Assembly (NCBI GenBank): GCA_030390025.1
Contig: CM059432.1
Location: forward strand, 22,322,001-22,386,000
DNA from: Squalus acanthias
Taxonomy: Eukaryota
Direction: 5' to 3'
DNA length: 64,000 bases
Shown: positions 1,650 through 56,659 of the stretch, piece by piece
Position numbering within the stretch: the stretch's first letter is position 1
Layout of the letters: each line of letters begins with the position of its first letter
Program-made: the position numbers and the translations under genes
The notes under the pieces: model-generated
What the model saw: only the letters and a program-made list of their open reading frames with translations
Database searches by the model: none
Told to the model about the DNA's origin: nothing

Positions 1650-1794
1650 AGTCTCTCTCCAGCTGCTCTATTCCAACAACAACAACAACTTGTATTTATA
1701 TAGTGCCTTTAATGTAGTAAAATGCCCCAAGGCGCTTCACAGGAATGCTATAAGATAAAAAAAAATTGAAACCGAGCCACATAAGGAGAAATTA

Positions 1795-3891
1795 GGGCAC
1801 TTAGGGGTAAAAATTGAGTCGCGCCCCATTTGGGGCGCTAACCTCGCCGGGGCACGACTTTTAGCGCCCCGAAAAAATTAGCGGCCCCGCGCCGGAACTT
1901 CAGTGGTTGCGCCCCAAGAGGGAAGCGGGGCGCCACTGGAAGCACCCCGCATCCCTCTTGGGGCGCTGCGAGTGAATATCCTGGCACTACGTGCCGCAGC
2001 GCCACGAGCTGCGGCACATCGCGCCGCGGTATTGCAGGCCTTCCTCCCCTTCTTAAAGGGGAGGGACCCTGCGCAGCGCGAACCGGGGCCCAGCTGGGCC
2101 CCCAGGGATCGGGAGTGCCGGCAAAAGAGCCCGGCACTCAAGAGAAGTGCCGGGCTCTTGGAGCGCAGCCGGCACTTCACGGTGGGGGGGCTTCACGGGG
2201 GCCGGGGGCAGGTGCTGGCAGGCGGCCAGCAACAAAAATGGCCGCCTGCCACCTCCCCTTTAAATATCGCCGCCCCGGCCGCACGTACGCCTCCCTGAAC
2301 CCGTCGGACATAGCGTCTGGCGGTAAATCAGGGGGCGCGACTGAAGATCGCGGCTGGAGCGCGAGCGGGGTGCTGCGCACGGCGATGACGTCATCGCCGG
2401 CGGCGCAGCGCCACAGGGCGCTACTGGCTGGCGCCGCCGCTAACCTCCCGCTGAATTTTTCGGGAGGCGTGGGCGGCGCTGCGCCCGGGCGTTAGCTGCT
2501 TTACGCCCCATTAGCGCCCTCTTAAGGCGCTAACGGGAGGCGCAAGCAGCTGAATTTTTCCCCCTTAGAAACTAATAGTAAGATTGGGCAGAGTCAACAT
2601 GGATTTATGAAAGGGAAGTTCTGTTTGACAAACCTATTGGAGTTCTTTGAGGATGTAACTAGTGGAGTAGACAAAGGGGAACCGGTAGATGTGGTGTATT
2701 TGGATTTTCAGAAGGCCTTCGATAAGGTCCCACACAAGAGGTTGGTGAACAAAATTAGGGCGCATGGAATTGGGGGTAATATACTGGCATGGATTGAGAA
2801 TTGGTTAACAGATAGAAAATAAAGAGTAGGGATAAATGGGTCTTTTTCAGGATGGCAGGCTGTGACTAGTGGGGTACTGCAAGGATCGGTGCATGGGCCC
2901 CAGTTATTCACAATCGATATCAATGATTTGGATGAGGGGACTAAATGTAACATTTCCAAATTTGCTGATGACACAAAGCTAGGTGGCAGTGTCAGCTGCG
3001 AAGAGGATGTGAAGAGGCTTCAAGGGGATCTCGACAGGCTCAGTGAGTGGACGAAAACATGGCAGATGGATTATAATGTGGATAAATGTGAAGTTATCCA
3101 CTTTGGTAGAAGAAACAGAAAGGCAGAGTATTTCCTAAATGGTGAAAGATTGGGGAATGCAGATGCTCAAAGGGACCTGGGTGTCCTTGTACATGAGTCA
3201 CTGAAAGTGAATGTGCAGGTGCAGCAAGCCATTAGGAAGGCAAATGGCATGCTGGCCTTCATTACAAGATAATTTGAGTACAGGAGTAAAGAAGTCTTAC
3301 TCCAATTATATAGGGCCTTGGTGAGACCACACCTGGCGTACTGTGTATAATTTTGGTCTCCTTACCTAAGGAAGGATATACTTGCCATAGAGGGAGTGCA
3401 ACGAAGGTTCACGAGATTGATTCCTAGGATGGCGGGACTATCGTATGAGAAGAGATTGAGTAAACTAGGCCTGTATTCTCTTGAATTCAGAAGAATGGGA
3501 GGGGATCTCATTGAAGCATATAACATTATTACAGGGCTTGATAGGGTGGATGCTGTGAGAATGTTTCCCTTGGCTGGGGAGTCTAGAACCAGGGGCCACA
3601 GCCTCAGGATAAAGGGTAGGCCATTCAGGACTGAGATGAGAAGAAATTTCTTCACACAGAGGGTGGTGAATCTTTGGAATTCTCTAGCCCAGAGGGCTGT
3701 GGAGGCTCAGTCATTGGGTATATTCAAAACAGAAGTCGATAGATTTCTGACTAGTAAGGGCATCAAGGGATATGGCGATAAGGCCAGTGAATGGAATTGA
3801 GGCAGAAGATCAGCCACGATCTCATTGAATGGCGGAGCAGGCTCGAAGGGCCGAATGGCTTACTCCTGCTCCTATTTCTTATGTTCTTATG
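1795..3891 (+). mobile_element. 5'-truncated CR1 LINE (RT and C-terminus with stop codons), with a MITE inserted near its 5' end
   Basis: ORF pieces QHGFMKGKFCLTN...YLDFQKAFDKV, KFADDTK, FFTQRVVNLWNSL. 3' UTR ends in (ttcttatg)n. Confidence 0.92.
1804..2564. mobile_element. GC-rich PIF/Harbinger-type MITE
   Basis: TIRs ggggtaaaaattgag / ctgaatttttccccc with a TTA TSD (1801-1803, 2565-2567). Removing it restores the CR1 codons CAC TTA GAA ACT (HLET). Confidence 0.88.
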
Positions 3892-4649
3892 TCCATCTGA
3901 CCAAAAGCTTGGTCAAAGAGGTAGGTTTTAAGGAGCATCCACACTTTCATTATCCCCCGCCCCCATATAAAATAATTAACTCTAAACTGTTCACCTTTGA
4001 CCTTGAATCCATGGGGTAGATTTTTGTCTTCACCACCTTGGCGGTAATCTGGTAGAGCTGATCGCCCGTTCATTAGAGAACCTGCCTGAAATCAATGGTG
4101 ATCTGCTCTGACAAATTATCACCCAAGTCAAGATATGCCTATTGCAGTACAGTGACCCGACTGCACACAATACACCAGGTGAGGTTAACCCAATGCTCTG
4201 TATAATCTCTCATCACTTCTTGGAATCAATGCTTTATTGCTCTGAATATGTACTCCAAGATCTCATTTGCTCTTGTTACTGCTGCCGCACTCTATGCTGA
4301 TGGTACTACCAGTACCCCAAGATTCCACATCCCATAAGATTTCCATTGCTTATTCCATTTCTTAATCACTTTGTTCTGCGTTAATACTCATTAAAGATTG
4401 GCATTCATCAGCCCAATTTCCCATTTTATCTAAATTTTTCTGTATTTTGACCACTTCTTTGCAACCTACTCCCAGTTTAATTTTGTAAGATTATTATTAA
4501 TTTTGTTCACCCCTATGTTTAGAGAAATAATCTTATTACTTGATCTAACCTTGAGCGGAAACAACAACCACAGAAACTGGTATTACAAATACTAAGCACT
4601 TTATTCAACTGCTGAACAACAATAAGCAACAGCTGTAAACAATACTCAC

Positions 4650-7029: not shown

Positions 7030-7320
7030 CCACCATGGCAAGTTGTGAAGTCTGCTAATTTGTGGGCTAGCACCATAAAATTATCGTGAATTGCGGTAAA
7101 AACCCAACTGGTTCACTAATGTCTTTCAGAAAAAGGAACAGACCACCACACATGACTCTAGTCCCCACTCTGTGGTTGACTCTTTATGGCCTCTGAAGTG
7201 ACCTGATGTAACTAGCCACGAGTCATTAAGAAGGCCCACCAACTTCTCAGAGGAACTAAGATTGGTTAACAAATGTGGTCTTGCCAGTACTGCCCATATT
7301 CTGAGAGCAGATGTAAAAAG
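7030..7320 (+). mobile_element. Old 3' fragment of a poly(A)-tailed CR1/L2-group LINE (family B) or a derived SINE
   Basis: aagaaggcccaccaacttctcag...ttgccagtactgcccatattctgag resembles the family B tail at ~19370-19470. Confidence 0.45.
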
Positions 7321-7590
7321 AAGATTGATAGAATATTGTGGTCAGCAGTGAATTATGACATATTTGTCACTTATGAGGCTGAACATAAGGTCCTCAGTCA
7401 TTTGAGGATTTGTTTTTAAATTGACAAACGCAGGGGGCCACATACTGAAAGGAGTAGGAGAGAACAAGGTAAATTAATGCTTAGCTGGCATCAAGCGTGG
7501 CTTTTAAAAGCCAGTAGAATATGAAAGATCAGAACAATGAGGGAGTTAAGCAATTCACAAGAAGTTCTGAGAAAGAATGATTTCGAGTAG

Positions 7591-7786
7591 GACACGGAGT
7601 AGAAAGAATACAAGAGAACCTGGAGCTAAAAGAGCAATCAGATGACAGTCTTTTCCTTGTATCGTGTCAAGGAATGTGATAGAGATGTTAGAAGAACCTC
7701 TCCTATATAGAAGTGTTCAAGTATGCGAGATAGTTCATTCACTGCTAATTGTGGCGTACCTTTTAAGTGAGCACAACAAAGAGTGA
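7591..7786 (+). repeat. 196-bp direct repeat, left copy (TSD-like flank of the young CR1)
   Basis: Identical by eye to 10742-10937. Confidence 0.95.
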
Positions 7787-10503
7787 TTACAGAAACATGG
7801 CTGCAGGGTGACAATGCCTGGGAATTAAACATACCAGGTTATTTAACGATCAGGAAGGACAGGAAGGAAGGAAGGGGAGGTGGGGTGGCTATGTTAATAA
7901 AGGAAGGAATCACTGTAATACAGAGTAATGATATTGGGTCAAAAAATCATGATAATGAAACAGTTTGGGTGGAGATAAGGAATAATAAGGGGAAAAAAAC
8001 ACTAGTGGGCGTAGTCTATAGGCCTCCGAACAGTTGCAACTCTGTTGGACGGAGTATCAATCAGGAAATAGTTGAGGCATGTAATAAGGGAACATCTATA
8101 ATTATGGGGGATTTTAACTATCATATTAATTGGACAAATCAAATGGGGCAGGGCTGCCTTGAGGATGAGTTCATTGAGTGTATTAGGGATGGGTTTCTTG
8201 AGCAGTATGTAACTGAACCGACCAGGGGGCAAGCAACCTTAGATCTGGTCCTGTGTAACGAGACAGGATTAATTAAAAATGTCCTAGTAAAGGATCCCCT
8301 TGGAATGAGTGACCATAACATGGTTGAATTCCATATTCAATTAGAGGGTGAGAAGGTTGGATCTCAAACAAGCGTGCTAAGCTTGAATAAAGGAGACTAT
8401 GAAGGTATGCGAGCGGAATTGAGTAGAGTGGATTGGGAAAATAGATTAAAGGGTAAGACGACACATGATCAGTGGTGTACATTCAAGGAGTTATTTTACA
8501 ACTTCCAAAAAAAATATATTCCACTGAAAAGAAAAGGGTGTAAAAGAAAGGACAGTCATCCGTGGCTAAGTAAAGAAATTAAGGATAGTATTCGACTAAA
8601 AACAAGGGCATATAAGGTAGCGAAATCTAGTGGGAGGACGGAGGATTGGGAAAACTTTAAAAGGCAGCAAAAAATAACAAAAAGATTGATTAAGAAAGGG
8701 AAGATAGATTATGAAAGTAAATTAGCAAAAAATATAAAAACAGATAGTAAGAGTTTTTATAGTTATATAAAAAGAAAAAGGGTGGCTAAAGTAAATGTTG
8801 GTCCCTTAGAGGATGAGACCGGGAAATTAATGGTGGGAAATATGGAGATGGCAAAAACACTGAATGAATATTTTGTATCAGTCTTTACAGTAGAAGACAC
8901 TAAGAATATCCCAACACTGGACAAACAGGGGGCTATAGGGGGAGAGGAGCTAAACACGATCAAAATCACTAAGGAAGTGGTACTCGGTAAAATAATGGGA
9001 CTCAAGGCGGATAAATCACCTGGACCTGATGGCTTACATCCTAGAGTCTTGAAGGAAGTGGCGGTAGGGATTGTAGATGCATTGGTAATAATTTTTCAAA
9101 ACTCCCTGGATTCCGCTAAGGTCCCGGCAGACTGGAAAACTGCTAATGTAACACCCTTATTTAAAAAGGGCAGTAGACAGAAGGCTGGTAACTATAGACC
9201 GGTTAGCCTAACATCTGTGGTAGGTAAAATTTTGGAGTCCATTATTAAGGAAACAGTAACAGGACATTTGGATAATCATAATTTAATAGGACAAAGTCAG
9301 CATGGTTTTATGAAGGGGAAGTCATGTTTGACAAATTTGCTGGAGTTCTTTGAGGAAGTAACATATAGAGTGGATAAAGGGGAACCAGTGGACGTAGTGT
9401 ATTTAGACTTCCAAAAGGCATTTGACAAGGTGCCACACAAAAGATTATTGCTTAAGGTAAAAAATCACGGGATTGGGGGTAATATTCTGGCATGGATAGA
9501 GGATTGGCTATCTAACAGAAAGCAAAGAGTTGGGATAAATGGTTCATTCTCAGACTGGCAATCAGTAACTAGTGGTGTTCCACAGGGGTCAGTGCTGGGT
9601 CCCCAACTCTTTACAATCTATATTAACGATTTGGAGGAAGGGACCAAGTGTAACATATCAAAATTTGCAGATGATACTAAGATGGGAGGGAAAGTAGTGA
9701 GTGAGGAGGACATAAAAAACCTGCAAGGGGACATAGACAGGCTAAGTAAGTGGGCAGAGATTTGGCAGATGGAATACAACACTGGAAAGTGTGAGGTGAT
9801 GCACTTTGGCAGGAAAAATCCTAGAGCAATTTATTATCTTAATGGCAAGAAACTGGAGAGTACTGAAGTGCAAAGGGATCTGGGGGTCCTGGTGCACGAA
9901 ACTCAAAAGGTTAGTATGCAGGTGCAGCAAGTGATTAAGAAGGCAAATGGAATGTTGGCTTTCATTGCTAGGGGGATAGAATATAAAAATAGGGAGGTAT
10001 TGCTTCAGTTGTACAAGGTATTGGTGAGACCGCACCTGGAATACTGCATACAGTTTTGGTGTCCTTACTTAAGGAAAGACATCCTTGCTCTCGAGGCAGT
10101 GCAAAAAAGGTTCACTCGGTTAATCCCGGGGATGAGGGGGTGGTCATATGAGGAGAGGTTGGGTAGATTGGGACTCTACTCATTGGAGTTCAGAAGAATG
10201 AGAGGCGATCTTATTGAAACATATAAGATTGTGAAGGGGTTGGATCGGGTGGATGCGGGGAGGATGTTCCCGATGACGGGTGAGACGAGAACTAGGGGAC
10301 ATAGTCTTAGAATAAGGGGCTGCTCTTTCAAAACTGAGATGAGGAGGAACTACTTCACTCAGAGGGTGGTAGGTCCATGGAATATGCTGCCACAAAAAGC
10401 TGTAGAAGCTACAACATTAATTAAATTTAAAACAGAAATAGACAGTTTCCTAGAAGTAAAGGGCATTAAGGGTTACGGGGAGCGGGCAGGAATTTGGACA
10501 TGA
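7786..10503 (+). CDS. CR1 ORF2 (APE endonuclease lacking its N-terminus, plus reverse transcriptase), no stops or frameshifts
   Basis: Motifs ITETW, YRPP, MGDFN, SDHN (EN); KSPGPDG, NYRPVSLTS, YLDFQKAFDKV, GVPQGSVLGP, FADD (RT). The GTG 'start' at 7783 is flanking DNA. Confidence 0.95.
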   Translation: MTETWLQGDNAWELNIPGYLTIRKDRKEGRGGGVAMLIKEGITVIQSNDIGSKNHDNETVWVEIRNNKGKKTLVGVVYRPPNSCNSVGRSINQEIVEACNKGTSIIMGDFNYHINWTNQMGQGCLEDEFIECIRDGFLEQYVTEPTRGQATLDLVLCNETGLIKNVLVKDPLGMSDHNMVEFHIQLEGEKVGSQTSVLSLNKGDYEGMRAELSRVDWENRLKGKTTHDQWCTFKELFYNFQKKYIPLKRKGCKRKDSHPWLSKEIKDSIRLKTRAYKVAKSSGRTEDWENFKRQQKITKRLIKKGKIDYESKLAKNIKTDSKSFYSYIKRKRVAKVNVGPLEDETGKLMVGNMEMAKTLNEYFVSVFTVEDTKNIPTLDKQGAIGGEELNTIKITKEVVLGKIMGLKADKSPGPDGLHPRVLKEVAVGIVDALVIIFQNSLDSAKVPADWKTANVTPLFKKGSRQKAGNYRPVSLTSVVGKILESIIKETVTGHLDNHNLIGQSQHGFMKGKSCLTNLLEFFEEVTYRVDKGEPVDVVYLDFQKAFDKVPHKRLLLKVKNHGIGGNILAWIEDWLSNRKQRVGINGSFSDWQSVTSGVPQGSVLGPQLFTIYINDLEEGTKCNISKFADDTKMGGKVVSEEDIKNLQGDIDRLSKWAEIWQMEYNTGKCEVMHFGRKNPRAIYYLNGKKLESTEVQRDLGVLVHETQKVSMQVQQVIKKANGMLAFIARGIEYKNREVLLQLYKVLVRPHLEYCIQFWCPYLRKDILALEAVQKRFTRLIPGMRGWSYEERLGRLGLYSLEFRRMRGDLIETYKIVKGLDRVDAGRMFPMTGETRTRGHSLRIRGCSFKTEMRRNYFTQRVVGPWNMLPQKAVEATTLIKFKTEIDSFLEVKGIKGYGERAGIWT

Positions 10504-10741
10504 GTCTAGGTTCGGATCGGTCATGGCCCTGTGGGTAGTGGAGCGGGCCCAGGGACTGTGTAGCCTGATTCTGCTCCTATTTTGTGTGTGCAATTCTGTT
10601 AGATGCAGGAGATGGTTCTGTGATAGATAGTAGATTGGCGGTTAGGATCAGATCAGCCATGATCTTATTGAATGGCGGAGCAGGCTCGAGGGGCCGATTG
10701 GCCTACTCCTGCTCCTATTTCTTATGTTCTTATGTTCTTAT
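7787..10741 (+). mobile_element. Young 5'-truncated CR1 LINE
   Basis: Uninterrupted ORF2, a 3' UTR and an (ttcttatg)n tail, flanked by identical 196-bp repeats. Confidence 0.97.
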
Positions 10742-10937
10742 GACACGGAGTAGAAAGAATACAAGAGAACCTGGAGCTAAAAGAGCAATCAGATGACAGT
10801 CTTTTCCTTGTATCGTGTCAAGGAATGTGATAGAGATGTTAGAAGAACCTCTCCTATATAGAAGTGTTCAAGTATGCGAGATAGTTCATTCACTGCTAAT
10901 TGTGGCGTACCTTTTAAGTGAGCACAACAAAGAGTGA
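10742..10937 (+). repeat. 196-bp direct repeat, right copy
   Basis: Identical to 7591-7786 and abuts the CR1 tail. Confidence 0.95.
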
Positions 10938-13293: not shown

Positions 13294-14229
13294 CGGCCAG
13301 AAATTCGGGTCGGAGGCTTCCCGCGGGTGCAAGCCCCCGACCTGCACTTACCTAGCGCGCCTGCCATTGTGCTGTGGGCCCGCGTGGGATTCCGATCCTG
13401 GGCCTCCTCCAGCTGCCGGTGTGCAGTGCTTGCGTATCCCAGGGGCGCAGTTAGTTTGAAGCGTCCCCTGGGATCACGTGGGCCATGGAGAGCCAATCGG
13501 AGCAGGGAATCTCCATTCATAGATTTGACAAGAAGACCTGTCAGTCTATGAATAGAGATCGGCCCCGAAACCTAACTAAAACTTCAAATATTTTTTTTTT
13601 TAAAATCACATTTTTAAAATAACTATAAATTACATAAATTAACTATTTTAAACAAAAATTTAAATTTTTGAAAAATTAATTACAGTTTTTAATGGGGCTA
13701 ATTCACCACTTACCTTGTTAGGAAGACCTGTCAAATCTATGAATTGAAATCGGCCCCAAAAGAACAGCTAAACTTCAGATAATTTTTTTAAAAAACCATC
13801 ACATTTATAAAATAACTATAAGTTAAATAAATTAACTACTTTAAACAAAAATTTTAATTTTTGAAAAAATTTAAATACTTTTTAACAGTGCTAAAAATAA
13901 ACGTACCTTTCTTTAAAGTATCTAAAAAAGATAAACCTGTTGAAATTTTTTTTAATTATACTTAATTAACCACTTACCTTGTTGAAAACGAGCCCTGCGT
14001 CTCCTTTTTAAAAGCGCAGGTTCTTCAATACTTACCCTCCCGGAGAAACCTGAAAAAAAACCTAAGTTTGCTGCGTGCGTGCAGCCTCTACCACGCTCGC
14101 GGTTCACCTCTGAACCACTCCCTTCACCAGACCGGAAGTTCCGGTTTCCCGCGCATGCGCAGTGCATGCAGGAAACCGGCACTTCAGGAGGCCTGTGTAC
14201 TCACCCGGCAAGTGCCGAAGTTTTGGCCC
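13294..14229. mobile_element. Harbinger-type MITE with an internal ~190-bp tandem duplication (family of 26393-27110)
   Basis: Ends ggccagaaattcgg / ccgaagttttggccc. Colinear with 26393-27110. Confidence 0.85.
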
Positions 14230-14895
14230 AAATTGTGCTCAAATCAGGAGTGAGACTTAAAACCACAACGTTATTACTCAAAGGCAAATACAAGTACTTT
14301 CTGTCCAGTACCTCCCCAAATGACTATTTTTCATGTGGAACCCAGTAACTGATAGGAGACTTTTCTCCATAGAGAGCTTCACAGCCAATATGGATCCTAT
14401 TCGCATCCGTTGCTCTCATGTGCATTCAGCAGGAGTCAACGGATAACAATTAGAAGTAGGGGACCTGCTAACTTAATCTACCCTGCCTAGCCTATCAATA
14501 CTTGTACTATATTATTACATGCCTTGTCACATGGCTTAGCATGAATATGCTCAGTTCAGCTCTGACCTAATAAACAAGCCTAGCCTAGCAACTCATCCTG
14601 TCTCTGTCCTTCATTTGTTCTACCCACACATGTTACATTTTTGGCGACGAGAATGGGATCCCAAAGCCATTTTTAGGGATCATGGAATGACACAGTGTTC
14701 AACCATCGAGTGGAAAAGTTTAAGGTGAATTTGTGACACCTAAACTGAATTTTTTGCAATGTTTTACTGTTAATGCTGATGCAGAATTGTCTGTGCTCCG
14801 CCTTCGCATGTATGTATACACAGCAACAGCAGCGTTGATTCTCACAGGTACATGGGTAGCGTGCTGAGTCACTGTTCAACGGGATCAGGACAATC

Positions 14896-16014
14896 ATGGC
14901 CGTGCCTATGGCATTCATCGGAAGCCTCGGCATGTATGACCAAGCTTGCAAACCATTCAGTTCTTATATTGAGCGGATGGAGATTTTTTTTATGGCCAAA
15001 AATATTATTGAGACTGAAGACACAGATGAGAATGTTCAAGCTCAAAATAAAGTAATTCGTGAACGAAAAAGCAATTTTTCTAATGGAGATCGGGCCAGAT
15101 CGTGCCACAGAAGTGCCAGGCAATGATTATCTCCAACAAGCAGGCGCATGGGAACACCATCACCTCCAAGTTCCCCTCCAAGTCACACACCATCCTGACT
15201 TGGAAGTATATCGTCGATCCTTCATCGTCGCTGGGTCAAAATCCTGGAACTCCCTACCTAACAGCACTGTGGGAGTACCTTCACCACATGGACTGCAGCG
15301 GTTCAAGAAGACGGCTCACCACCACCTTCTCAAGGGCAATTAGTGATGGGCAATTAATGTTGGCCTTGCCAGTGACACCCACATTCCATAAACGAATAAA
15401 AAAAAAATGTCTACAGAACATTGACAAACCTACTCGCGCCAGGGAAAGCGAAGGATGTGTTGTTTGAAGACATTGTCGAGAAACTCGAGGACCTTTTCGA
15501 CCCAGAGCCATTAGAAATAGCAGAGAGCTACAAGTTTGGTACCAGAAACAAAAAACAAAGTGAAACCATCAATGAGTACATTGTAGCTCTTAAGAACCTG
15601 TCTTTGCATTGTAACGTCGGCACATTTTTGTATCGTGCATTGCGAGATAAGTTTGTGTGTGGACTGGTGGATGAGCGCACACAGTCCAAATTACTGAACA
15701 TTCCAAAGCTAACGTTTGACATAGCATGCAAAATTGCTCTATCTATGGAGATGGCATCTAAGAATGCAAGGGAGCTCTGTCCAACTCAAGTGACTAGTGC
15801 AGCTGAGGTCTACAGTCATAAAGCCACCGGCAAACCTAAAGTTGTGAGACCAAGTCAAAAGCATGTCGGTGAGAGCAGTTCAGTGAATTGTTATTGCTGC
15901 AATGGAAATCACTCACCACAGTCCTGCCAATACAGAAATGCAAAGTGTTTTCACTGCCAGAAGCAAGGCCATATTTCAACAGCTTGCAGAGCTAGATCGA
16001 AAGCACCATTCTAG
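14896..16014 (+). pseudogene. gag: Gypsy gag (interrupted by a LINE fragment at ~15103-15407)
   Basis: YIERMEIFF...; YIVALKNLSLHC...ALRDKFVCGL; tandem knuckles CYCCNGNHSPQSC and CFHCQKQGHISTAC. Confidence 0.88.
15103..15407 (+). mobile_element. Family B (CR1/L2-group, poly(A)-tailed) LINE 3' piece with an internal deletion, inserted in gag
   Basis: Matches the tail region of 18815-19472 and 32770-33508 and ends in aataaaaaaaaa. The gag codons GPD|VYRTL resume after it. Confidence 0.8.
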
Positions 16015-16149
16015 TGGCAATGCAAAGCAGTGACAACAAAAGGGAGGCATTCACAATATTGAAGTGAACACACCTGATGTTGAAGAACTAGGCATCTGCA
16101 GTACCTATGCCACTAGCGGCAATGCTAGCAGTCATGAGAAAGACTTCCG

Positions 16150-17710
16150 TACAAAACTTTTGATCAATGACCAATATATTGATATGCGTATTGACACGGT
16201 GGTGGACTGCACTATCATGAGTAAGGACACATAGGAGAGTAAATTTAATCAAATACCACTTACAAAGAGTACCATAGAGTTAAAAACCTACTCCGGAGAA
16301 ATCCTAGAGACATGTGGACAAATGGAATGTACAGTTGAACACAATGGCCAGTCAGTAAAGCTGCCTATTATTATGGTGAGCTACAATAACAGACCAACCC
16401 TCATGAGCAAAGACTGGTTGAAAAAGTTAAAACTAGACTGGAAAAACATCTTCAGTGTAAATGCTTCAAAGAAGCAACTCGACACAATGCTGAACAAGAA
16501 CGAAAGCATGTTCTCAGACAGTTATGTGGGCATCACTGGGTATGATGTGCATATCCGCATCAAGTCCAACACGAAGCCTGTCTATTGTAAGGCAAGGCCG
16601 GTCCCCTATGCGTTGAAAAGTCAGGTGGAAGAAGAGCTAGAGAAGCTAAGAGAGAACGGCGTACTAGTAAAAACTGACAAAAGTGAATGGGCTACCCCGA
16701 TTGTGGTAGTGCCCAAAGCAGACAAAACTGTACGCTTGTGTGGTGACTACAAAGTTACTATCAACCAAACAGTCGACGATGAGCAGTCCCCGTTACCTAC
16801 ATCACAGGATTTGTATGCAGCCCTCTCTGGGTCAAAGGTTTTCTCCAAGCTTGACCTGTCACATGCTTACGCTCAGCTGAATGTTGACAAAGAGAGTCAA
16901 CAGTATCTCACTATCAACACACACAAGGGACTGTACTCATACACCAAGTTGCCGTATGGTGTAAAGTCCTCCCCAAAATGGATAAGATTTTGCAAGGAGT
17001 TCCAAATTGCTTATGCAATCAAGACGATATGCTGATCGCAACAAGCAGCGAGGAAGAAAATCTAGAAGAGTTAGATGTAATGCTTCATTCCCACAATGTC
17101 AAATGGGAGCTGTCATAAGCCACGTAATGGATGACGGCCAAGAGAAATCAATCGCGTTTGCATCGTGAACCCTCACAAAGAGCGAAAGAAACTACGTGCA
17201 AATTGAAAAGGAAGCACTCACCATAGTGTTTGGAATAAAGAACTTCCAACAGTTCCTAATCGGCAGAAAGTTTACCCTGATAACCAATCACAAACCACTC
17301 CTAGCAATATTGGGGCCCAAATCTGCCATCCCTACAATGGCCGTATCAAGAATGCAACGTTGGGCAGTGTTGTTGTCACAATATGACTACACGATTGAAT
17401 ATCGCACTTCAAAGCAAAAAGCAATCACTGATGCCTTGTCCAGGTTGCCACATGAGGACTCGTGTGTTGGGAGTGAAGGTGAGATTTCACACTAGGTGCA
17501 GTTGACAAAGACTTTCCCATGAATGCAACTGAGATTGCAGATGAGACTCAAAAGGACTCGGTACTGAAAAGAGTGGATGAAAACACCTTGAGTGGATGGA
17601 CTGATCAGTGTCTGGACACAGAGTTGAAACCATTCCATAACCGTCGTACTGAATTGTCTTGTGAGCAAGGTTGTATCAGGGGAAACAGAGTGGTGGTGCC
17701 TACTTCTTTG
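16150..17710 (+). pseudogene. pol: Gypsy pol remnants (protease, partial RT, RNase H; integrase mostly deleted)
   Basis: IDT protease-like site at ~16190; SEWATPIVVVPK, RLCGDYK, FSKLDLSHAY, LPYGVKSSP; EKEALTIVFG...TNHKPLL...RMQRWA...DALSRLP. Stops and frameshifts are present. Confidence 0.9.
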
Positions 17711-18814
17711 AGTTCGGAACCAGAACAAAACAGCCTGAAAATTGGTTCAACACCAAAACCTTTTGTAAGGAGATCAGGAAGGCGCCGCAAACCTGTTATT
17801 AAACTGGATTTGTAGTTGATTTAAAAGAAAAAAAGCCAGGAGTTTTTGATATGTGGTACATGTAATGCTGGGAAAGATGGGACCATAGTTTTGTTGTATT
17901 TGAGAGGGGAATACATATTTTTTTTAAGGGGAAAGCAGTTTATCACATGGTTTAGTATGAACTTGCTCAGTTCGCTCTGGCCTAGTAAACAAGCACCTTG
18001 ACTAGCAACTCATCATGTCTCTGTCCTTCATTTGTTCTACCCACATATATTCCAATACTGAAGGCAATTATATTGCTCTAACTATTGCCTGTTTGGAGAT
18101 CAGTTCTCTCAGCACAGACCAGAGTTACAGTTTAAGATTTTCCTAGCCAATATGACTCATTACCTCATTGTGATGAATATATGCCTACTTAGCCATCACA
18201 AGCACTTCAGTGATTTCTCTGCTTACCCTGCGATTTCAAGTTTTTCTTGGATTTTTTCCCCTTCATCCAGGTTATGACTCTGGATGGCACAGATAAGCAT
18301 GCATCTGAATTTAACCCACTCATAAATTTTAATAGAGGGTTCGACTCAAACGTTATGCCTTTCTTGATTAGTCACATATGCAATTCAACTGTGGTAAAAA
18401 CTAAAATAGCTACCTAATAAAAATTAACTCCACTGCAGCAGCTGTTCTTCTTCACTGCCTTAAATGCTTAATTCATTATAATAGTTAATAGGAATGCTAG
18501 TCATTTTCAGTCACTAGATTTATGAGTCAAGACTGTTTTGAAAAAAAGTCTTCATTTTTTTCTGAGTTATTTATTTATTTATTGTTCTTGAGAAACCTAT
18601 GTAGAAAGTTCAAGGCCTGTAGTGCAGGCCACAACCGAGGCTCAAAGAAGAGAAGAGTTGATGAGATAAATTAGGAAGCAGTGATAGCTGGCATCGAGCT
18701 TGTGTTTTAATATCCAGTAGATTGTAAAAAGAAGGAACAGTTGAGGGAGCCAAGAAGCACCACAGTTTTGTGGTCCGATAAAGAATGAACTGGAGTTAGG
18801 AGATAGAATTGCCA

Positions 18815-23625: not shown

Positions 23626-24770
23626 AAAAGAAAAAAGAAAGACTTGCATTTATATTCTTAGACAGTCTTCTTCTTAGGCAGTCCCTCGGAACCGAGGATG
23701 ACTTGCTTCCAAACTAGAAATGAGTTCTCAGGTGACTAATGAGTCCAATGCGGGACCTACAGTCTCTGTCACAGGTGGGGCAGACGGTGGTTGAAGGGGC
23801 GGGTGGGTGAGGTGCTTGGGTTGATGTGCACTCCTTCCGCTGTTTGCGCTTGGCTTCCGCTTGCTCCCGGCGAAGAGACTCGAGGTTTTCGGTGCCTTCC
23901 CGAATGCTTCTCCTCCACTTTGTGCGGTCTTGGGCCAGTGGTCTTGGCAAATGGAATTTAACCCAGGTGTCGGTGGGGATGTTGCACTTTTTCAAGGAGG
24001 CTTTGAGGGTGTCCTTGAAGTATTTCCTCTGCCCACCTGGGGCTCTCTTGCCATGTCGTAGCTCCGAGTAGAACGCTTGTTTTGGGAGTCTCGTATCGGG
24101 CATGCGGATGATGTAGCCCGTCCATCGGAGCTGATCGAGCGTGGTCAAAGCTTCGATGCTGGGGATGTTGGCCTGAGCGAGAACACTGACGTTGGTGCGC
24201 ATAACCTGCCAATGGATTTGCAGGATCTTACGGAGGCAGCATTGGTGGTACCTCTCCAGTGCTTTGAGGTGCCTGCTGTACATGGTCCATGTCTCTGAAG
24301 CATACAGGAGGGCGGGTATCACTACTGCTCTGTAGACCATGAGCTTGGTGCTGGGTTTGAGGTCCTGGTCTTCAAACACTCTCTTCCTCAGGCGACCGAA
24401 GGCTGCATTGGCACACTGAAGGCGGTGTTGGATTTCGTCATCGACGTCTGCCCTTGTTAACAGTAGGCTCCCGAGGTATGGAAAGTGGTCCACGTTGTCC
24501 AAGGCCTGGTCATGGATTTTGATAATCGGGGAGCAGTACTGTATGGCGGGGGCAGGTTGGTAGAGGACCTTTGTCTTATGGATGTTTAGTGTAAGGCCCA
24601 TGCTCTCGTACGCTTCAGTGAAGGTGTTGACGATGGCTTGGAGTTCGACCTCAGAGTATGCGCAGACGCAAGCATCGTCTGCATACTGTAATTCGATGAC
24701 CTCAGGATGTCCCAAAGCGCTTTACAGCCAATGAAGTACATTTGAAGTGTCGTCAGAGTTGTAATGTCGA
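23626..24770 (-). mobile_element. DeuSINE 3' tail split by an RTE insertion
   Basis: aaagaaagacttgcatttatat (to ~23655) and ctcaggatgtcccaaagcgctttacagccaatgaagtac (from 24701) are the reverse complement of the tail of 766-1233. Confidence 0.7.
23666..24700 (-). mobile_element. 5'-truncated RTE LINE (RT C-terminus plus C2H2 finger)
   Basis: ELQYADD...FPYLGS...QLRWTG...CPTCDRDCRSRIGLISHLRTH and an (aag)n tail. Confidence 0.93.
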
Positions 24771-26308: not shown

Positions 26309-27300
26309 CCCAACTATGATCAATAGTAGATATAGTAGATCAATTTAACCATTAAGTCACTGGCAAAACTGCAGATGCACTTTCTGCATAATGGGCCAGA
26401 AATTCAGCTTTCCGGCTTCCTGCGGGTGCAAGCATCGCGCGCGTACTTGCCTACCGCGCCTGCCGTTGTGCTTTGGGCCCACGAGGACTTCGGCTCCTGG
26501 GCCTCCTCCAGCTGCCAGCGCGCAGTGCTTGCGTATCCCAGGGGCGCAGTTAGTTCGAAGCGTCCCCTGGGATCATGTGGGCCATGGAGAGCCAATCCTA
26601 ACAGGGCATTTTCATTCATAGATTTGACAGGAGGCCCCAAAACCACACTTAAACTTCAAATCATTTTTTTTTAAAAAACATCACATTTTTAAAATAACTA
26701 CAAGTTACATAAATTAACTACTTTAAACAAAAATTTAAATTTTTCAAAAAATTAATTATACTTTTTAACGGTGCTAAAAATAAACTTACCTTTCTTTAAA
26801 GTATCTAAAAAAGATAAACCTGTTGAAAAAATGTTTAAATTGTAATTAATTAACCACTTACCTTGTTAAAAACAGGCCTTGCGCCTCCTTTTTAAAAGTG
26901 CAGCTTCTCCATACTTACCCTGCCGGAGAAACCTGAAAAAAAAACTAATTTCGCTGCGTGCGCGCAGCCTCTCCCGCGCACGCGTTCGACTTCTGAACCC
27001 CTCCCTTCAGGGGAACGGAAATTCCGGTTTCCCGCACATGTGCAGTGCATGCGTGAAACCGGCACTTCAGGTGGCCTTACGGGTGAGTACAAGAGCCGAA
27101 TTTCTGGCCCAATATTTCTAACGGGCATTGGAGAATGTATAAATTCATGAAATAATGCATCCTTTGTAAAATATTTTATTCAAAAAGACAACGAACAAAT
27201 TGTTTTTTCTCCCAATCTCTCTTCTATTTTGATGTTATTAGATCGAAAAAGTCTTTTTCATTCCATATTTTCACCATATCTCTCAATTCCTTCTTTCTCT
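26309..27300 (+). repeat. Copy 1 of an old ~270-bp local duplication (interrupted by the MITE 26393-27110); copy 2 at ~28868-29138
   Basis: Shared blocks atttaaccattaa.tcactggcaaaa.tgcagatgcactttctgcat and tgcatcctttgtaaaatattttatt. Confidence 0.85.
26393..27110. mobile_element. Harbinger-type MITE
   Basis: TIR gggccagaaattc / gaatttctggccc with an aat TSD on both sides. Confidence 0.9.
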
Positions 27301-30879: not shown

Positions 30880-31899
30880 TGTAAGGTGTTTGGTTTCCTC
30901 GTCCTTACAAGGGTTCTTTGACTGTGGGTTTTACAGGAACAAAATCGTAGATGGCACAAAGGTTTAGGTTCAACCCAAAACTGTTTGTTTATTAAAACCA
31001 GCAAAACACGGACAAAAACCTGTTGAGATTTGGCTGAAACTTACAATCACCCATCCGGCCGGTCGTTACCGTTGTGGATTGTAGGCCTGGATCGGAGATG
31101 ACCTGTCCCCGTCCTCCTTTATCTGACTGCAGCTGCCTACACAGCGCAAACCCCTTGTAGAGTCAACTGAATACTTACAATCACCCGTCCGGCTGGTCGT
31201 GGCCGATGTCGATTACAGGCTGGGGGCTGGAGATGACCGTCTTCCCTTCCTTCTTACACCTGGCTGTAGCCAGAGCTAGCTTCCGAGAGAGAGAGAGAGC
31301 TTCTGAGAGAGCTTCCGAGTGAAAAGCAGAGAGAGCTGAGGTGTGTTTCTTCTTACAGCTCTTCTGTCATGCCTTTTTGAGTCTGGGCCTTCCCCCAACT
31401 CTTGTTTTCAAATACACACCCAGTAATCCAAACCACAGGATGTGTACAGGGCTGGGGGATGGAAGACAATTCTTATCTTGTCTCCTCCGCCCTGTGATAC
31501 ATATTTAATGTAATTTAGTCTTACTGCTGATGTGTTTTGCCAAGGTTAAAGTGTTTTTTCAGGAAGTCCATTGTTCCAGCGAAATTGGCATTGTTGTCTT
31601 ATCCATTGAAGATCCATCAAAACCCATTAAAACACAAAGTCTCATTGTCCAAAGTTAAATCACCTATTCACTGTTAAATCACCTATCGAGACGCTCATTG
31701 TTTCAGTTAAACTCAGAGCATTGTCCAGATGTTAATTTTTCCCATCGAAACCAATCATGATTCAAGGCCTCACAGTTCAATGTCAATGTCCTTTTAACCA
31801 AAGCTTTCATTGTCCAGTATCAATGTGTTCTCCAAGAACTGCAAATATTAACCGTTTCATGCCCTTATGCTGGGGCCAAATGGTTCCATGAAACTTACA
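30880..31899 (-). mobile_element. Solo LTR, 1020 bp (ERV-like)
   Basis: TGTAAG...CTTACA inverted ends, 4-bp TSD acat (30876-30879, 31900-31903), and a minus-strand AATAAA at ~30988. Internal duplication ~31040-31135 vs ~31175-31270. Confidence 0.85.
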
Positions 31900-32507
31900 A
31901 CATTTTCAGTGCATTCTCGCCACTAGCCACCGAAAATGCAGCTACCAGGTAATGAATATAATCTATGAAGCATTTGTGAGGGTGTTGCACGAAAAGTGCA
32001 ATCACCATCGACACTAAACCCCTATTAAACCAGTCGCATCCCTCTGTTATACACCTTAGTTTGTTTTCACGGTTGTGATAGGTCAAGTTATGGAGACCAT
32101 CATGGGGAGTGTCCTCTCCAGAAAGGTGTGACATTAAACTTGGTTTTGCTTAACGATCATCACCTTTCGTTAAATGCGTTTCCAGTACTGTGGATTGCTA
32201 AAATACAGAGTCGCAGGGCTTCTCAGTCATCCTCAGATCTTCCTCCTCCAGGTATTCCCATTGGGATGCCCACCTTCACAGTTCTGGTTCTGGCATCTTA
32301 ATTTGCAACTGACGGAAAATAGAGAGTTGCTGAAAAGTCCAACCATGCCACAATCGAAACCAATAACAAACGCAATGGAAAAATCACAAAAAACGCTGAA
32401 TGAAAAATGGATATTGCGACAGAACAAAGTTCAAATTGCTATTTCCCTTTTAAGAGTGCAATCTTCAAAATTGTTGAAAAACCCTTCTGTGCAGCACCTG
32501 TTATAAG

Positions 32508-32637
32508 CAGGTGCTCAACATTTTCATTGCATTCCCAGCACTAACCACAGAAAATGCAGCTACCAGGTAATGAATATAATTTATGAATCATTAGTGAGGG
32601 TGTTGCACGAAAAGTGCCATCACCATTTACACTAAAC
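32508..32637 (+). repeat. ~130-bp direct repeat; the first copy is 30866-30879 + 31904-32018, split by the solo LTR
   Basis: caggtgctcaacattttca.tgcattc...gaaaatgcagctaccaggtaatgaatataat...cactaaac occurs in both copies. Confidence 0.85.
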
Positions 32638-38471: not shown

Positions 38472-40993
38472 TAACTGCTTATTTCCATCTATGTAGCACT
38501 GGCTACCTGTTCCCTTACATCACCCCACTTACACTAAAACCCTCTAGCCACACTTTTATTGGGTCTCTACCTCCATCTGACACAAGCTTCAACTTGTCTA
38601 AAATCACCTCCGTCCTGTCCCGCACTAAGTTCCGCTTGCCTATTATCCCCATTCTCATCAACCGCCATTGCTCCCTGGCTCCCAGTACACTAAATTGACC
38701 ATGAATTCGGTATTCTTGTCTTCATTTATAAATCCTTTCTTGGCTTCAGTGCACCTTGCCAGCTCTATTTTCCATCCTATTCTCTATGGTTCTTTGGCTC
38801 TGAGCCCTCTCCTGCATCCCATTTAGATGGCAGAGTTTCTGCAATATCTTTCCTAAATGACCTTGTCTGTTACTTTTCTGCCTACCTTTATAGGCATCTT
38901 CCAAATCTATCTTTTTGACCATGCATTTGGTTATCTCTCATTGTATAATCTTCTTGTTTATAAAACAGTGTATTATCAGTATGTGCAATTCCATGGAGGA
39001 TCTGCTAACAGCTTTTTAAAAAAATAGAACAAAAAGTACTCAGACTTTGTTTCTCCTTTAATGGTTTTTCTGTAAATTATATATCTGCATTTTCTATTAC
39101 TTTCTAGGCAATGTTCCACTTATTGCAAGACATCTGGCATAACGTAGGGGTCCACATACAGCAAAATCTATGCCAAAGTAGCTTGTGACACCACATTAGA
39201 TTAATGTCTGGTAGAGGTAGAGGAATAGAACTGTTTCTTCCATTAATTGATAACCGTGTTAAAAATTCAGATGCTCAGTGAAACAGCTTTTTAAATCAGC
39301 TTTTCCTTGCTTCTAATTAAATTCACACAACTAATGAAGATCTCGATCCAGATACAAAAAAAAATCTGAGGCATGACTGATGATTGGAAAACTCACGGGC
39401 TGCAGTCAAATAATTACTGGCAAAAGGTTTGCAATGAGCCTGCAAGAGAAATATGCAGTGATGTTGCTTAAATGAGCTCTGGGACATACATTACTGATAC
39501 ACCAGATCTGGCAGAGTTGCGACATCTTGTGATTTCTCTCCTGATAGCCTGTCTGTTCTACGTTTAAACATCTGCTTGATATGTTCTCATTAAGTTCTTA
39601 AAAAGCTTCAGGAATCTCCAAATAGTCTTGAGGGCAAAGTGTTCTGTGAAAGGCCTGATTATTTGAGGACACCAATTGTCTCTGCCTTTTAGTATCATGA
39701 TTACTTTATTCTTAAGGAATGATGACTTTTGCACAGTAGCACAGATGGGCTTTTCTCTTTACAAATTGTGGGCTTCTTATGTTTTTAATATTTATGGCTG
39801 TATGAATATCATATCAAAGTCCATGTGAGATCAGGGCATTGCTAATTTGTCACCTATAGATAAAGATGTAGTTTAAAAATGACTTTCAACAGTGTCCGGT
39901 CATGAAAGGTTAACATATTCATGCAACATTTCTGCATCCACTAGTTTAACCAACTCACTGGACCATTTATTAAAATGGGTTAAAGCCTCAGGTAAAATTG
40001 CAGAGGAACTCAAATGAACACGTTAAGCTTTTATCACCGAAAGCACTTTCTAGCCATATATTCTTATGGGCATGACAAAGGCACTGCATATGTTGTAGAT
40101 GAAGATTGTTTTTCAGAAACTGCCCTTTGATTACAATGTTTAGCATAGTCCATTCTGCACTGAATCTTCAGCAATATCAGTCAATCTTCATTCTAACACT
40201 TCAAGGCAGATTTTCCAAGATTTGTGCCTCTTCTGCCTAAATGTTGGGCACAGCTGACTTTGCCAGTTCTTCTGGGTTAAGCCTACTTTGATAAACGTGG
40301 TGAGCTCCTAGTCTGAATATGGCCTCTTCTTATGAGTTCACAAAGGCAGGCACAGAATGTCTGGCACTGCTACAAATCTTAAGGGGCTGCAGCATGCATT
40401 TAAAAACATTTGGCAGCTTAAAAGTAGATGGCTGTACGTGCAGAGGAATAAGAATCTTGGCTGTCGAGGCTGTTTTGTCGTGAAGAATTTTTCTTGGCTT
40501 TCAAAGGGGTGTGTTGGGTAAAAGTAAAGGATGGCAAATCCAGTGGACGGCATCACAAATACGAAGGCAGGAAGCAGATTCCGTGGGCATGTGATGCAGG
40601 AGTACAGAGCCTGAATCCACTGGGCAATGCAGCAAAGTACTGAAATTGTTCAGGTCCCATTGCCATTCATTGGAAAAGTGACGAAAGTTTTGGTCATGCA
40701 TTATTCACTTGTTTGATATTTATATGGGCAACACATTGACTGATATTGCAGATAATCCCTATGCCAGCCTGGAAGGAACCAAAGTCAGAAAGGTTGAGAG
40801 CAGTGGCACCTTGATTGCAAGCTACAAGTCTATATGTTGCAAGTTTGCTGCAGATGCTAAAGCTCTGTAAATGTTTCCCTGTTGACCCAGAAACTGAAGA
40901 GGCAGGTATCCTCAGTCATTGCAAAGTTGCTGTGCTGAAGTCTACAGATATGGTTGGTGGCATAATGGCAGATGTAACAGACTCAGTCTGGAG

Positions 40994-41459
40994 TCTGTGA
41001 TCTCCCTGCTATCTGTGATCTCCCTGGTGCCTCTGCTGTCTTGGTGCCTGTGATCTCCCTGGTGCCTGTGATCTCCCTGGTGCCTCTGCTGTCTTGGTGC
41101 CTGTGATCTCCCTGGTGCCTGTGATCTCCCTGGTGCCTGTGATCTCCCTGGTGCCTCTGCTGTCTTGGTGCCTGTGATCTCCCTGGTGTCTGTGATCTCC
41201 CTGGTGCCTGTGATCTCCCTGGTGTCTGTGATCTCCTGTTGCCTGTGATCTCCCTGGTGTCTGTGATCTCCCTGGTGTCTGTGATCTCCCTGGTGTCTGT
41301 GATCTCCCTGGTGTCTGTGATCTCCTGTTGCCTGTGATCTCCCTGGTGTCTGTGATCTCCCTGGTGTCTGTGATCTCCCTGGTGTCTGTGATCTCCCTGG
41401 TGTCTGTGATCTCCCTGGTGTCTGTGATCTCCCTGGTGCCTCTGCTTTCTTGGTGTCTG
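40994..41459. repeat. Minisatellite with ~18-bp unit CTGTGATCTCCCTGGTG(T/C); continues, more diverged, at 49187-49325
   Basis: Directly visible tandem array with variant units (cctctgctgtcttggtg, ctgtgatctcctgttgc). Confidence 0.95.
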
Positions 41460-43281: not shown

Positions 43282-46200
43282 GGGCGTCTCAGAGACTCTC
43301 ATGACTCTTCGGCTCACCCTAGCCTGGAACCAGTGCGCTACAGTCATCAGTGCGTATGCCCCACTGGAAGCCACAGACGAGACCAAAGAGGAATTCTACT
43401 CCAGCCTCGAACAATCTCTGTCCCGAGTCCCAATGGGCGACAAGCTGATCTTCCTTGGCAACTTTAATGCCAGAATTGGAAAGGACACAGACCTCTGGGG
43501 AGGTGTGATCGGCAGAGAGGGGGGAAGTGAAAGCATCCTCCTGTCGAAATGCTCAGAACATGGCCTTGTCATAACCAACACCTTGTTCCATCAGAGAGAC
43601 AAGTACAAGGCTTCATGACAGCACCCTCGCTCCAAGCACTGGCATCTGCTGGACTGCGTCATCGTCCGAGCGAGGGACCACAAGGACGTCCGCATCACCC
43701 GCGCCATGACAGGAGCTGACGACTGCTGGACATCTCCATCAATATAGCCCCTAAACAGCGGCAGCAACAGAAAAAATGCCACAGGAAAATCAACGCTGGA
43801 GCACTCAAAGACCCCTGCTAAGAAAGCCCTATTCAGCCTGCGCCTCACAAACAACCTGATGACTCCCACTGATGCAGAGACACAGAGTGTCCACAGCACC
43901 TGGTCGGCGCTCAAGGCCTCCATAATCAGCACCTGTGAAGAGAGGCTTGGTCACTCGACCAGGAAACACCAAGACTGGTTCGACGAAAATGACTAGGAGA
44001 TTCAGGAGCTAATAAGCCGCAAGCGCAAGGCATTCCTGATCTGGAAACAGCAACACAACTCGAGAGCAAGAAAGCAGCTCTACAGACGCCTGAAGGCTGA
44101 GGTCCAACAAAAAACTTGCGACCTAAAGAACAGATGGTGGGTGGAGAAAGCGTAGGAGATCCAGCAGCTAGCCGACAACCACGACGTGCGTGGATTCTTT
44201 AGTGCAGTTAAGACCACCTACAGCCCAAGCACCCAAGGTCCTACCCCACTGCGGGCCAAGAACGGAGAGGTACTCATCAAGGACAGAGAGGGAGTCATTG
44301 CCCGCTGGAAGGAGCACTTCGAAGATCTCCTTAACTGAGACTCTGTCTTTGACGCGAGTGTCCTCAACTCCATCCCGCAGCATGCTACCCGCCACCATCT
44401 CAGCACAACCCCAGCCCGGCATGAGGTTGAAAAGGCCATCCGACAACTGAAGAACAACAAGGCCTCAGGAGCAGATGGAATCCCCGCCGAGGCATTAAAG
44501 CATGGCAGAGAAGCACTACCGGCACGAATTCATGAACTCATTTCTCTTATCTGGAAGGAGGAGAGCATGCCAGGGGACCTCAGAGATGCCGTAATTGTGA
44601 CCATCTTCAAGAAAGGTGACAAGTCTGATTGCGGTAATTACAGAAGAGTTTCCCTACTGTCTGCCACAGGGAAAGTCATTGCAAGAATCCTCCTCAATTG
44701 CCTTCTCCCAGTGGCCAAAGAGCTCCTCCCAGAGTCGCAATGCGGATTCCGCCCACTAAGGGGCACAATGGACATGATCTTCACCGCGTGTCAATTACAA
44801 GAAAAATGCAGCGAACAGCACCAACTGCTGTACATGGCCTTCTTTGATCTCACAAAGACCTTCAACACTGTCAACCGTGAGGGATTATGGAGTGTCCACT
44901 CAAAAGTTTGACGCCTGCTTCACGATGACATGCAAGCCGTGATCCTGACCAATGGTTCCACCACAGACCCAATTCATGTACGGACCGGGGTCAAGCAAGA
45001 CTGTGTCATCGCACTAACGTTCTTCTCGATCTTCCTTGCTGCAATGCTCCATCTCACCCTCAATAAGCTCCCCGCTGGAGTGGAGCTAATCTACAGAACA
45101 AACGGGAAACTCTTCAACCTCCGTCGCCTCCAGTCCAGATCCAAGGTCGTCCTATCCTCTGTCGTGGAATTACAGTATGCAAACGATGCTTGCGTCTGCG
45201 CTCACTTGGAGGTCGAACTGCAAACCATCGTCAACACCGTCACTGAAGCATACGAGAGCTTGGGCCTTACACTAAACATCCGTAAGACAAAACATCCGTA
45301 ACAACCTGCCCCCACCACATCGTACTGCCCCCCAATGATCAAAATCCACGACAAGGCCTTGGACAACGTGGACCACTTTCCATACCGCGGGAGCCTACTG
45401 TCAACAAGGGCAGACTTCGATGACGAAGTCCAACACCGCCTTCAGTGTGCCAGTGCAGCCTTCGGTCGCCTGAGGAGGAAAGTGTTTGAAGACCAGGACC
45501 TCAAACCCGGCACTAAGCTCATGGTCTACAGAGCAGCAGTGATACCCGCCCGCTGTATGCCTCAGAGACATGGACCAGGTACAGCAGGCACCTCAAAGCA
45601 CTGGAGAGGTACCACCAACGCTGCCTCCGCAAGATCCTGCAAATCCATTGGCAGGATAGGCACACCTACGTCAGTGTTCTCACTCAGGCCAACAACCCCA
45701 CCATCGAAGCTTTGACCACACTCGATCAGCTCCGATGGACGGGTCACATCGTCCGCAAGCCCGATACGAGACTCCCAAAACAAGAGCTCTACTCGGAGCT
45801 CCGACATGGCAAGAGAGCCCCAGGTGGGCAGAGGAAACACTTCAAGGACACCCTCAAAGCCTCCTTGAAAACGTACAACATCCCCACTGACACCTGGGAA
45901 TCCCTTGCCCAAGACTGCACAAAGTGGAGGAGAAGCATAGAACATAGAACATGGAACAGTACAGCACAGTACAGGCCCTTCAGCCCTCGATGTTGTGCCG
46001 AGCATTGTCCGAAAACAAGATCAAGCTATCCCACTCCCTATCATTCTGGTGTGCTCTATGTGCTTATCCAATAACCGCTTGAAAGTTCCTAAAGTGTCCG
46101 ACTCCACTATCACAGCAGGCAGTCCATTCCACACCCCAACCACTCTCTGAGTAAAGAATCTACCTCGGACATCCCTTCTATATCTCCCCCCATGCACCTT

Positions 46201-47000
46201 ATAGTTATGCCCCCTTGTAACAGCTACCTCCGCCCGAGGAAATAATCTCTGAACATCCACTCTATCTATCCCCCTCATCATCTTATAAACCTCTATTAAG
46301 TCGCCTCTCATCCTCCTCCGCTCTAAAGAGAAAAGCCCTAACTCCCTCAATCTTTCCTCATAAGACCTCCCCCCCAAACCAGGCAGCATCCTGGTAAATC
46401 TCCTTTGCACTCTTTCCAATGCTTCCACGTCCTTCCTATAGTGAGGTGACCAGAACTGCACACAATATTCCAAATGTGGTCTCACCAAGGTCCTGTACAG
46501 TTGTAGCATAACCTCACGGTTCTTAAACTCAAACCCCTTGTTAATAATTGCTAACATACTATAGGCCTTCTTTACTGCTCTATCCACTTGAGTGGCAACC
46601 TTCAGAGATCTGTGGATATGAACCCCCAGATCCCTCTGTTCCTCCACGTTCCTCAGAACCCTGCCGTTGACCCTGTAATCCTTATTCAAATTTGCCCTAC
46701 CAAAATGAATCACCTCGCACTTATCAGGGTTAAATTCCATCTGCCATTTTTCGGCCCAGCTCTGCATCCTATCAATGTCTCTTTGCAGCTTACAACAGCC
46801 CTCCACCTCATCCACTACTCCACCAATCTTGGTGTCATCAGCAAATTTACTGATCCACCCTTCAGTCCCCTCCTCCAAGTCATTGATAAAAATCACAAAC
46901 AGCAGAGGACCCAGCACCGACCCCTGTGGCACACCGCTGGTAACTGGTCTCCAGTCCGAAAATTTTCCATCCACCACCACCCTCTGCCTTCTATGAGATA

Positions 47001-47214
47001 TGATGCGGAGATGCCGGTGTTGGACTGGGGTGGACAAAATTGAGAGGTCGCACAACACCAGGTTATAGTCCAACAGTTTTATTTGAAATCACAAGCTTTC
47101 GGAGCTATCGCTCCTTCCTCAGGTGAAGTCTCACCTGAGGAAGGAGCGATAGCTCCGAAAGCTTGTGATTTCAAATAAAACTGTTGGACTATAACCTGGT
47201 GTTGTGCGACCTCT
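47001..47214. mobile_element. PLE-type non-autonomous insertion with a perfect 84-bp inverted repeat
   Basis: Arms 47043-47126 and 47131-47214 with loop agtc. TSD (tct)atgagata at 46990-47000 and 47212-47222. Splits the CR1 codons WLSHR|RQR. Confidence 0.93.
47131..47168 (+). ncRNA. Minimal hammerhead ribozyme motif (mirror copy on the minus strand at 47089-47126)
   Basis: tcac-CTGAGGA-a-ggagc(gata)gctcc-GAAA-gc-TT-gtga; predicted cleavage after CUU at 47164. Confidence 0.8.
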
Positions 47215-56656: not shown

Positions 56657-56659
56657 TTC

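Follow-up and report, generated by a model that had tools for sequence, protein, structure and literature searches.

A truncated CR1-type element between two copies of one host segment

The window, that is, the whole 64-kb stretch of DNA that we analysed, contains no N and carries a CR1-type LINE of 2955 bp at 7787-10741 on the plus strand. The DNA probably derives from a cartilaginous fish. The element is truncated at its 5' end and lacks the 5' UTR and ORF1. What is left of ORF2 (7786-10503, plus strand) comprises 905 stop-free codons and a stop, and encodes an APE endonuclease, whose start is missing, followed by a reverse transcriptase, as in the CR1 clade. This remnant matches PF03372, PF14529 and PF00078 in Pfam, and the Atlas clusters closest to it carry the same domains. 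An earlier note on this DNA had described the ORF as intact. The run of stop-free codons agrees with this description, but the start is lost and PF03372 is matched only from profile position 36. Since the copy begins inside the endonuclease domain, without 5' UTR, ORF1 or the start of ORF2, we regard it as young but non-autonomous, with an ORF that is open rather than intact.

A 3'-terminal stem-loop is predicted at 10677-10715 (plus strand), and also in an older copy that ends at 3892. Folding of 10642-10742 gives a z score of -1.83, with 6 of 200 shuffles as good, and the older copy gives -1.57. The element ends in an octamer tail of three TTCTTATG units (10719-10742, plus strand), the last G of which is common to the duplication described below. 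Alignments also revealed that the terminal hairpin-and-tail module has a second, degenerate copy further upstream within the 3' UTR (10506-10600, plus strand), which is about two thirds identical to 10642-10737 and folds no better than shuffled sequence (z 0.00). A single module, without the upstream copy, is present in the older relatives at 2583-3892 and 56123-56661 of the window, and the doubled module is probably a trait of the master copy of the subfamily. The predicted hairpin, with a stem found in two copies at modest z scores, and the octamer tail are likewise features of the CR1 clade. In addition, we take the C-terminus of the ORF2 remnant to resemble that of vertebrate CR1 ORF2. We call the element CR1-type, as its placement in CR1 rather than in a sister clade (L2, Zenon, Rex1) is based on the tail and on this presumed C-terminal likeness. 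A 3' hairpin and an octamer microsatellite tail, without poly(A), are described as the end structure of CR1 (PMC4316615).

The CR1 family to which the element belongs is abundant and young. Among 489 aligned contigs, 179 are at least 99% alike, and in one public run (X1, see below) the summed depth of the family is about 5e5 against 12 for the flank, a value that is not a true copy number. Over the 114 positions of 7787-7900, the focal copy departs from the majority of the family only once, and it has a rare letter of its own at 7864. Two exact-pattern scans of metagenome contigs gave no locus with a copy of the family; one locus with a 22-base match was taken as chance.

The element lies between two copies of a 196-bp host segment, one at 7591-7786 and the other at 10742-10937, both on the plus strand. 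The copies agree at 196 of 196 bases and the exact match stops at both edges; the computed chance of a 196-base match within 64 kb is about 1e-109. The left copy adjoins the LINE at its truncated 5' end, and the right copy adjoins the third TTCTTATG unit, so that direct repeats flank both ends of the element, as is required of a bona fide target-site duplication (TSD). There are no extra nucleotides at either junction, and each shows a one-base overlap. At the 3' junction, the G that opens the repeat doubles as the final letter of the third tail unit. At the 5' junction, the repeat closes with an A at 7786, where the CR1 family carries an A as well. This A is the only target base that matches family copies extending upstream of the truncation, with loose ends at this position in all four of the runs compared. 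With one base common to the element at each junction, the duplication measures 194-196 bp, outside the typical CR1 TSD peak of about 3-5 bp. The observation that started this work, namely two identical copies that abut the 5' junction and the tail exactly, is thus confirmed, with the length refined to this range.

In contigs from public runs, the depth of the segment equals that of the flank over most of its length, with small bumps at 7560-7599 and 7620-7699. Hence, the segment is not part of a repeat family, and its single-copy depth rules out an LTR, a transduced flank or a part of the element. An LTR- or TRIM-like element was also rejected, as the segment ends GA...GA instead of TG...CA, is single-copy over most of its length and has no third copy within the 64-kb window. 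We found no long ORF crossing the duplicated segment. The repeat most likely represents a genuine duplication of single-copy target DNA, coupled to the insertion and formed as the element landed.

Other CR1 copies and repeat pairs in the window

The empty site could be deduced from a host repeat for only two other CR1 copies in the window. The CR1 at 45936-48946 (minus strand) lies inside an RTE element, an intact version of which is found at 23870-23940, and duplicated 0-3 nt. The CR1 that ends at 3892 lies inside a SINE as part of a compound insertion and shows no duplication at its 3' junction. The statement that the other CR1s of the window duplicate at most a few nucleotides therefore holds for both assessable copies. 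A long TSD is found in neither of the two, and as both belong to other subfamilies they provide no test of the focal one. The truncation of the CR1 at 45936-48946 falls about 8-12 nt upstream of the position that corresponds to that of the focal copy, which may be either chance or a truncation hot spot. The same copy contains a palindromic insert of 172 bp at 47043-47214. The SINE, at 1679-3939, is split by the compound insertion, which consists of another element at about 1800-2570 and of the older CR1 ending at 3892.

Several repeat pairs of the window were considered as further long duplications. The pair 14524-14637/17940-18054 was rejected because it represents the LTRs of a Gypsy-type element, with TG...CA in the left copy and a purine tract before the right copy. 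This element (14524-18054) is decayed, its short LTRs are 86% identical, and it is interrupted by a dispersed repeat at 15139-15405. The pair 49505-49527/50152-50174 was also discarded, as the two look like copies of a short repeat tail, whose family likeness we assume. The direct repeat at 31898-32019/32516-32637 is 122 bp long and 90% identical, with an interior of 496 bp, and may represent either a long duplication of greater age or a small element of unknown type. Neither a LINE tail nor a long ORF was found inside this repeat pair (31898-32637), and a short hairpin adjoins its second copy. At 13532-13885 there is an old tandem duplication with a period of 193 bp (1.8 copies, 83%), a size close to that of the focal duplication; the repeat that holds it has another copy near 26394-27077 without the tandem duplication. 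Finally, a minisatellite with units of 17-18 bp occurs at 40988-41459 and at 49187-49327, the two being about 80% alike.

The insertion site in public runs and the age of the duplication

Four of 24 listed public runs, all available as contigs, were compared with 7320-7900, which comprises the left flank, one copy of the segment and the start of the CR1; runs with small word shares were left aside. The runs correspond to two samples of organism A (X1 and X5, from two studies) and to organisms I and K, and 95, 55, 97 and 95% of them was read. In all four, contigs follow the window as far as 7786 and then run into arms of 1300, 285, 1269 and 120 letters, respectively, that are unlike the CR1 start. 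In both samples of organism A, a single contig shows 0 differences in 467 bases (7320-7786) before it enters its arm of 1300 or 285 letters without CR1, and the contig that spans the segment in X1 is unbranched and 1987 nt long. The contigs of organisms I and K also reach 7786 and run on for 1269 and 120 letters. If the arms of 1300, 1269 and 120 letters are taken as right flank following one copy of the segment, they end at 12237, 12206 and 11057, which are the edges of the next repeats; the arm of 285 letters would end at 11222, where no repeat edge is discernible. This assignment is based on length, orientation and record coordinates, and not on the letters of the arms; the loose-end rows listed number 24, beyond which there are 101 more. 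From the geometry of the contigs, organisms I and K appear to carry the segment once, so that the single copy would be ancestral. In both organisms, the match of the contigs breaks off at 7602, which lies 11 nt within the segment. This break suggests that an indel separates I/K from organism A near the later insertion site.

No contig that bridges 7786/7787, as one from the filled allele would, was found among the 32 pieces listed, beyond which there are 2130 more. Likewise, the depth at 7760-7779 is that of the single flank contig alone in all four runs, with no sign of a filled junction. The simplest reading of these data suggests that both samples of organism A lack the insertion, which would then be polymorphic or private. 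However, a path from flank through segment to flank also exists in the filled allele, because the k of 31 is smaller than 196, and the samples of organism A are thus no proof of an empty allele. Short junction paths beside a very deep repeat may have been pruned by the assembler, and pruned contigs could look alike. In this sense, the earlier proposal of a possibly polymorphic insertion is favoured by the lack of a CR1 junction contig in two samples that are conspecific or nearly so, and falls short of proof because pruning could hide the junction. The single-copy empty allele, which the note had recommended looking for, appears to be present in the relatives I and K, while X1 and X5 are ambiguous, as pruned junctions could give the same contig.

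The same contigs bear on the age of the duplication. In organism I, 7 of the 89 positions of the segment that could be compared depart from the window; in organism K, 14 positions over 189 do so, and there is also an 8-nt gap. Hence, the segment of the relatives is about 8% apart from the window, whereas the two copies in the window differ at 0 of 196 positions (95% upper bound 1.5%); at a divergence of 4%, such identity would have a probability of about 3e-4. Barring gene conversion, the duplication therefore arose long after the split between I/K and the window lineage, in good agreement with the very recent insertion that had been proposed.

Origin and precedents of the long duplication

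Our preferred reading, to which we give about an even chance, is that one recent CR1 retrotransposition duplicated its own target by using a host-made break about 195 bp away from the priming site. The bottom strand at the left edge (7590/7591) would prime reverse transcription, which would start at the octamer tail and come to an early stop within the endonuclease region. The end of the cDNA would then be joined to the top-strand 3' end about 195 nt downstream (7785/7786), and not at the usual 3-5 nt. This second end would most likely be a break of host origin, for instance a lagging-strand junction left unligated, a nick from repair or a stray nick, and not a cut that the element had measured. 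The 195 bp between the breaks would be unwound and filled in on both arms. The abutment is precise, with the repeat beginning at the tail end and stopping at the 5' truncation. We infer the ancestral single copy, the target-primed reverse transcription (TPRT) and the origin of the second break. Priming by the endonuclease is assumed, since target and tail overlap by a single base at the 3' junction and the site does not start with TTCT, the start preferred by a bird CR1 (PMC2612034).

The duplication might instead have arisen by restart of a replication fork without a second nick, the main rival of our reading, which we take seriously and yet hold to be unlikely. The stalled nascent bottom strand would prime the CR1 cDNA, which would re-engage the template 195 nt back and recopy the segment, giving the same structure, a tandem duplication with the CR1 at its junction that is still coupled to the insertion. 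Fork restart requires no unwinding of 195 bp and agrees with the weak match between target and tail. Moreover, exposed replication ends have been named as possible primers (PMC5223499), and the old tandem duplication at 13532-13885, with its 193-bp period, may be faintly suggestive of such events. On the other hand, the one-base overlap at the 5' junction is scant for re-annealing, and the complete 3' end with its intact tail is like that of ordinary TPRT. One locus cannot separate TPRT with a distal break from fork restart, or from insertion at a resected break.

Zero divergence would also be produced by an assembly artefact, in which merged filled and empty haplotypes or overlapping contig ends had caused the segment to be written twice, and the filled junction is absent from the public contigs compared at the site (among the pieces listed, in four runs). 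Against this, the window is free of N, a merge would have to set the exact tail end against the segment start, and the rare letter at 7864 indicates that the element is no plain family consensus; we consider an artefact improbable. The abundance and youth of the family would be in line with a pseudo-TSD, that is, two independent same-strand family insertions that lay at opposite edges of the segment on different haplotypes and were joined by unequal crossover, and an origin of long TSDs by recombination has been discussed for HERV-K (PMC5488345). This scenario has only a slim chance in our view, as it requires two segregating insertions within 196 bp plus a crossover, and an allele with an insertion at a single edge is absent from the four runs compared. 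Slimmer still is the chance that a tandem duplication came first and that the CR1 later landed exactly on its junction. The final sequence would be identical, but the relatives appear to be single-copy, an unbranched contig crosses the segment in X1, and the CR1 would have had to strike a very young duplication at a single base out of about 400.

A retrotransposition that captured a distal host-made break would have precedents in other retroelements. TSDs of L2 elements peak at 3-5 bp and those of CR1 are said to resemble them closely (PMC4245944, citing Ichiyanagi and Okada), and coelacanth CR1 TSDs measure 2-10 bp in the rows shown (PMC4255032). For L1, TSDs longer than 100 bp are reported for up to 10% of the events in HeLa cells and for 57-91% in NER-deficient cells, a distal unrelated nick being blamed (PMC5223499), and long L1 TSDs have been linked to 5'-truncated copies (PMC2912911). 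ZfL2-2, which is CR1-2_DR of the L2 clade (PMC4245944), gave one of 25 inserts with a TSD of 1228 bp in wild-type DT40 cells (PMC2666801). In Dualen-4b_cRei of Chlamydomonas, more than half of the insertions have TSDs of more than 50 bp, with a median of 900 bp (PMC9977147), and R9 of bdelloid rotifers has a TSD of 126 bp (Gladyshev and Arkhipova 2009, cited in PMC9977147). Finally, HERV-K (HML-2) has polymorphic sites with TSDs of 250 and 111 bp (PMC5488345). The rarity implied by the earlier note was thus overstated, since long TSDs have been published for several retroelements, including a CR1-group relative. In the literature searched, which was mostly open-access, we found no report of a long TSD of a germline CR1, and PMC13343379 yielded nothing on TSD length. 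The primary genomic survey of CR1 junctions is reportedly that of Ichiyanagi and Okada from 2008, which may include counts of long TSDs for CR1.

Of these elements, ZfL2-2 is likewise an APE-type LINE of the CR1 group with a usual TSD of a few bases and a rare, far longer one; it was an engineered element in cultured chicken cells, whereas the focal copy is natural and assembled. In the human L1 events, too, the insert is 5'-truncated and flanked by a long exact duplication, which is attributed to a distal nick, but they differ from the focal copy in their clade (L1), their poly(A) tail, a modal TSD of about 15 bp and their origin in cultured cells. R9 is likewise a non-LTR element with a TSD of more than 100 bp in a natural genome. 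It is specific for rDNA, its endonuclease is restriction-like, and its long TSD is described as characteristic of the element; the other assessable CR1s of the window, in contrast, have 0-3 nt. Dualen-4b_cRei provides de novo LINE insertions with long flanking duplications, as in the focal copy; in contrast to the latter, it has both APE and RLE endonuclease domains and long TSDs in most insertions. HERV-K (HML-2) is a germline case of similar length against a short normal TSD, with the same pseudo-TSD caveat as the focal copy, but it is integrase-based and does not use TPRT. That an integrase-based element nevertheless has long TSDs suggests that the host, and not the nuclease of the element, can set such lengths. 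Altogether, the focal insertion is a singular one that acts like the long-TSD outliers of L1 and ZfL2-2, and nothing at the locus speaks for membership in a class, such as R9 or Dualen, that makes long TSDs as a rule.

A length of 196 bp resembles a nucleosome repeat or an Okazaki fragment, a likeness that derives from a single value. We regard it as highly doubtful that TSDs of the subfamily, or of the germline of the lineage, show a second mode near 150-200 bp, with cDNA ends captured by Okazaki junctions or by nucleosome-spaced linker nicks. If this were true, long TSDs would form a length peak that is missed by survey limits of about 30 bp, and would offer a natural view of how the second strand is joined in LINE integration. 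No peak is apparent in the long TSDs of the publications cited here, which range from 111 bp to more than 1 kb, and TSD length was limited to about 30 bp in two surveys (PMC2912911; PMC13320814).

As a single locus, the insertion is an anecdote, and its value lies in the genome-wide survey of TSD lengths that it suggests; a length peak in such a survey, if found, would raise the importance of the focal case. Pipelines limited to 30 bp class such insertions as homology-mediated variants. In addition, long direct repeats may permit the precise loss of an element by recombination, which would mimic a never-filled site in presence/absence markers. Breakage and joining of the second strand is the least understood step of LINE integration. 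In this regard, the focal insertion indicates that the long-TSD route of cultured cells also works in a vertebrate germline, in a clade whose normal TSD is 3-5 bp.
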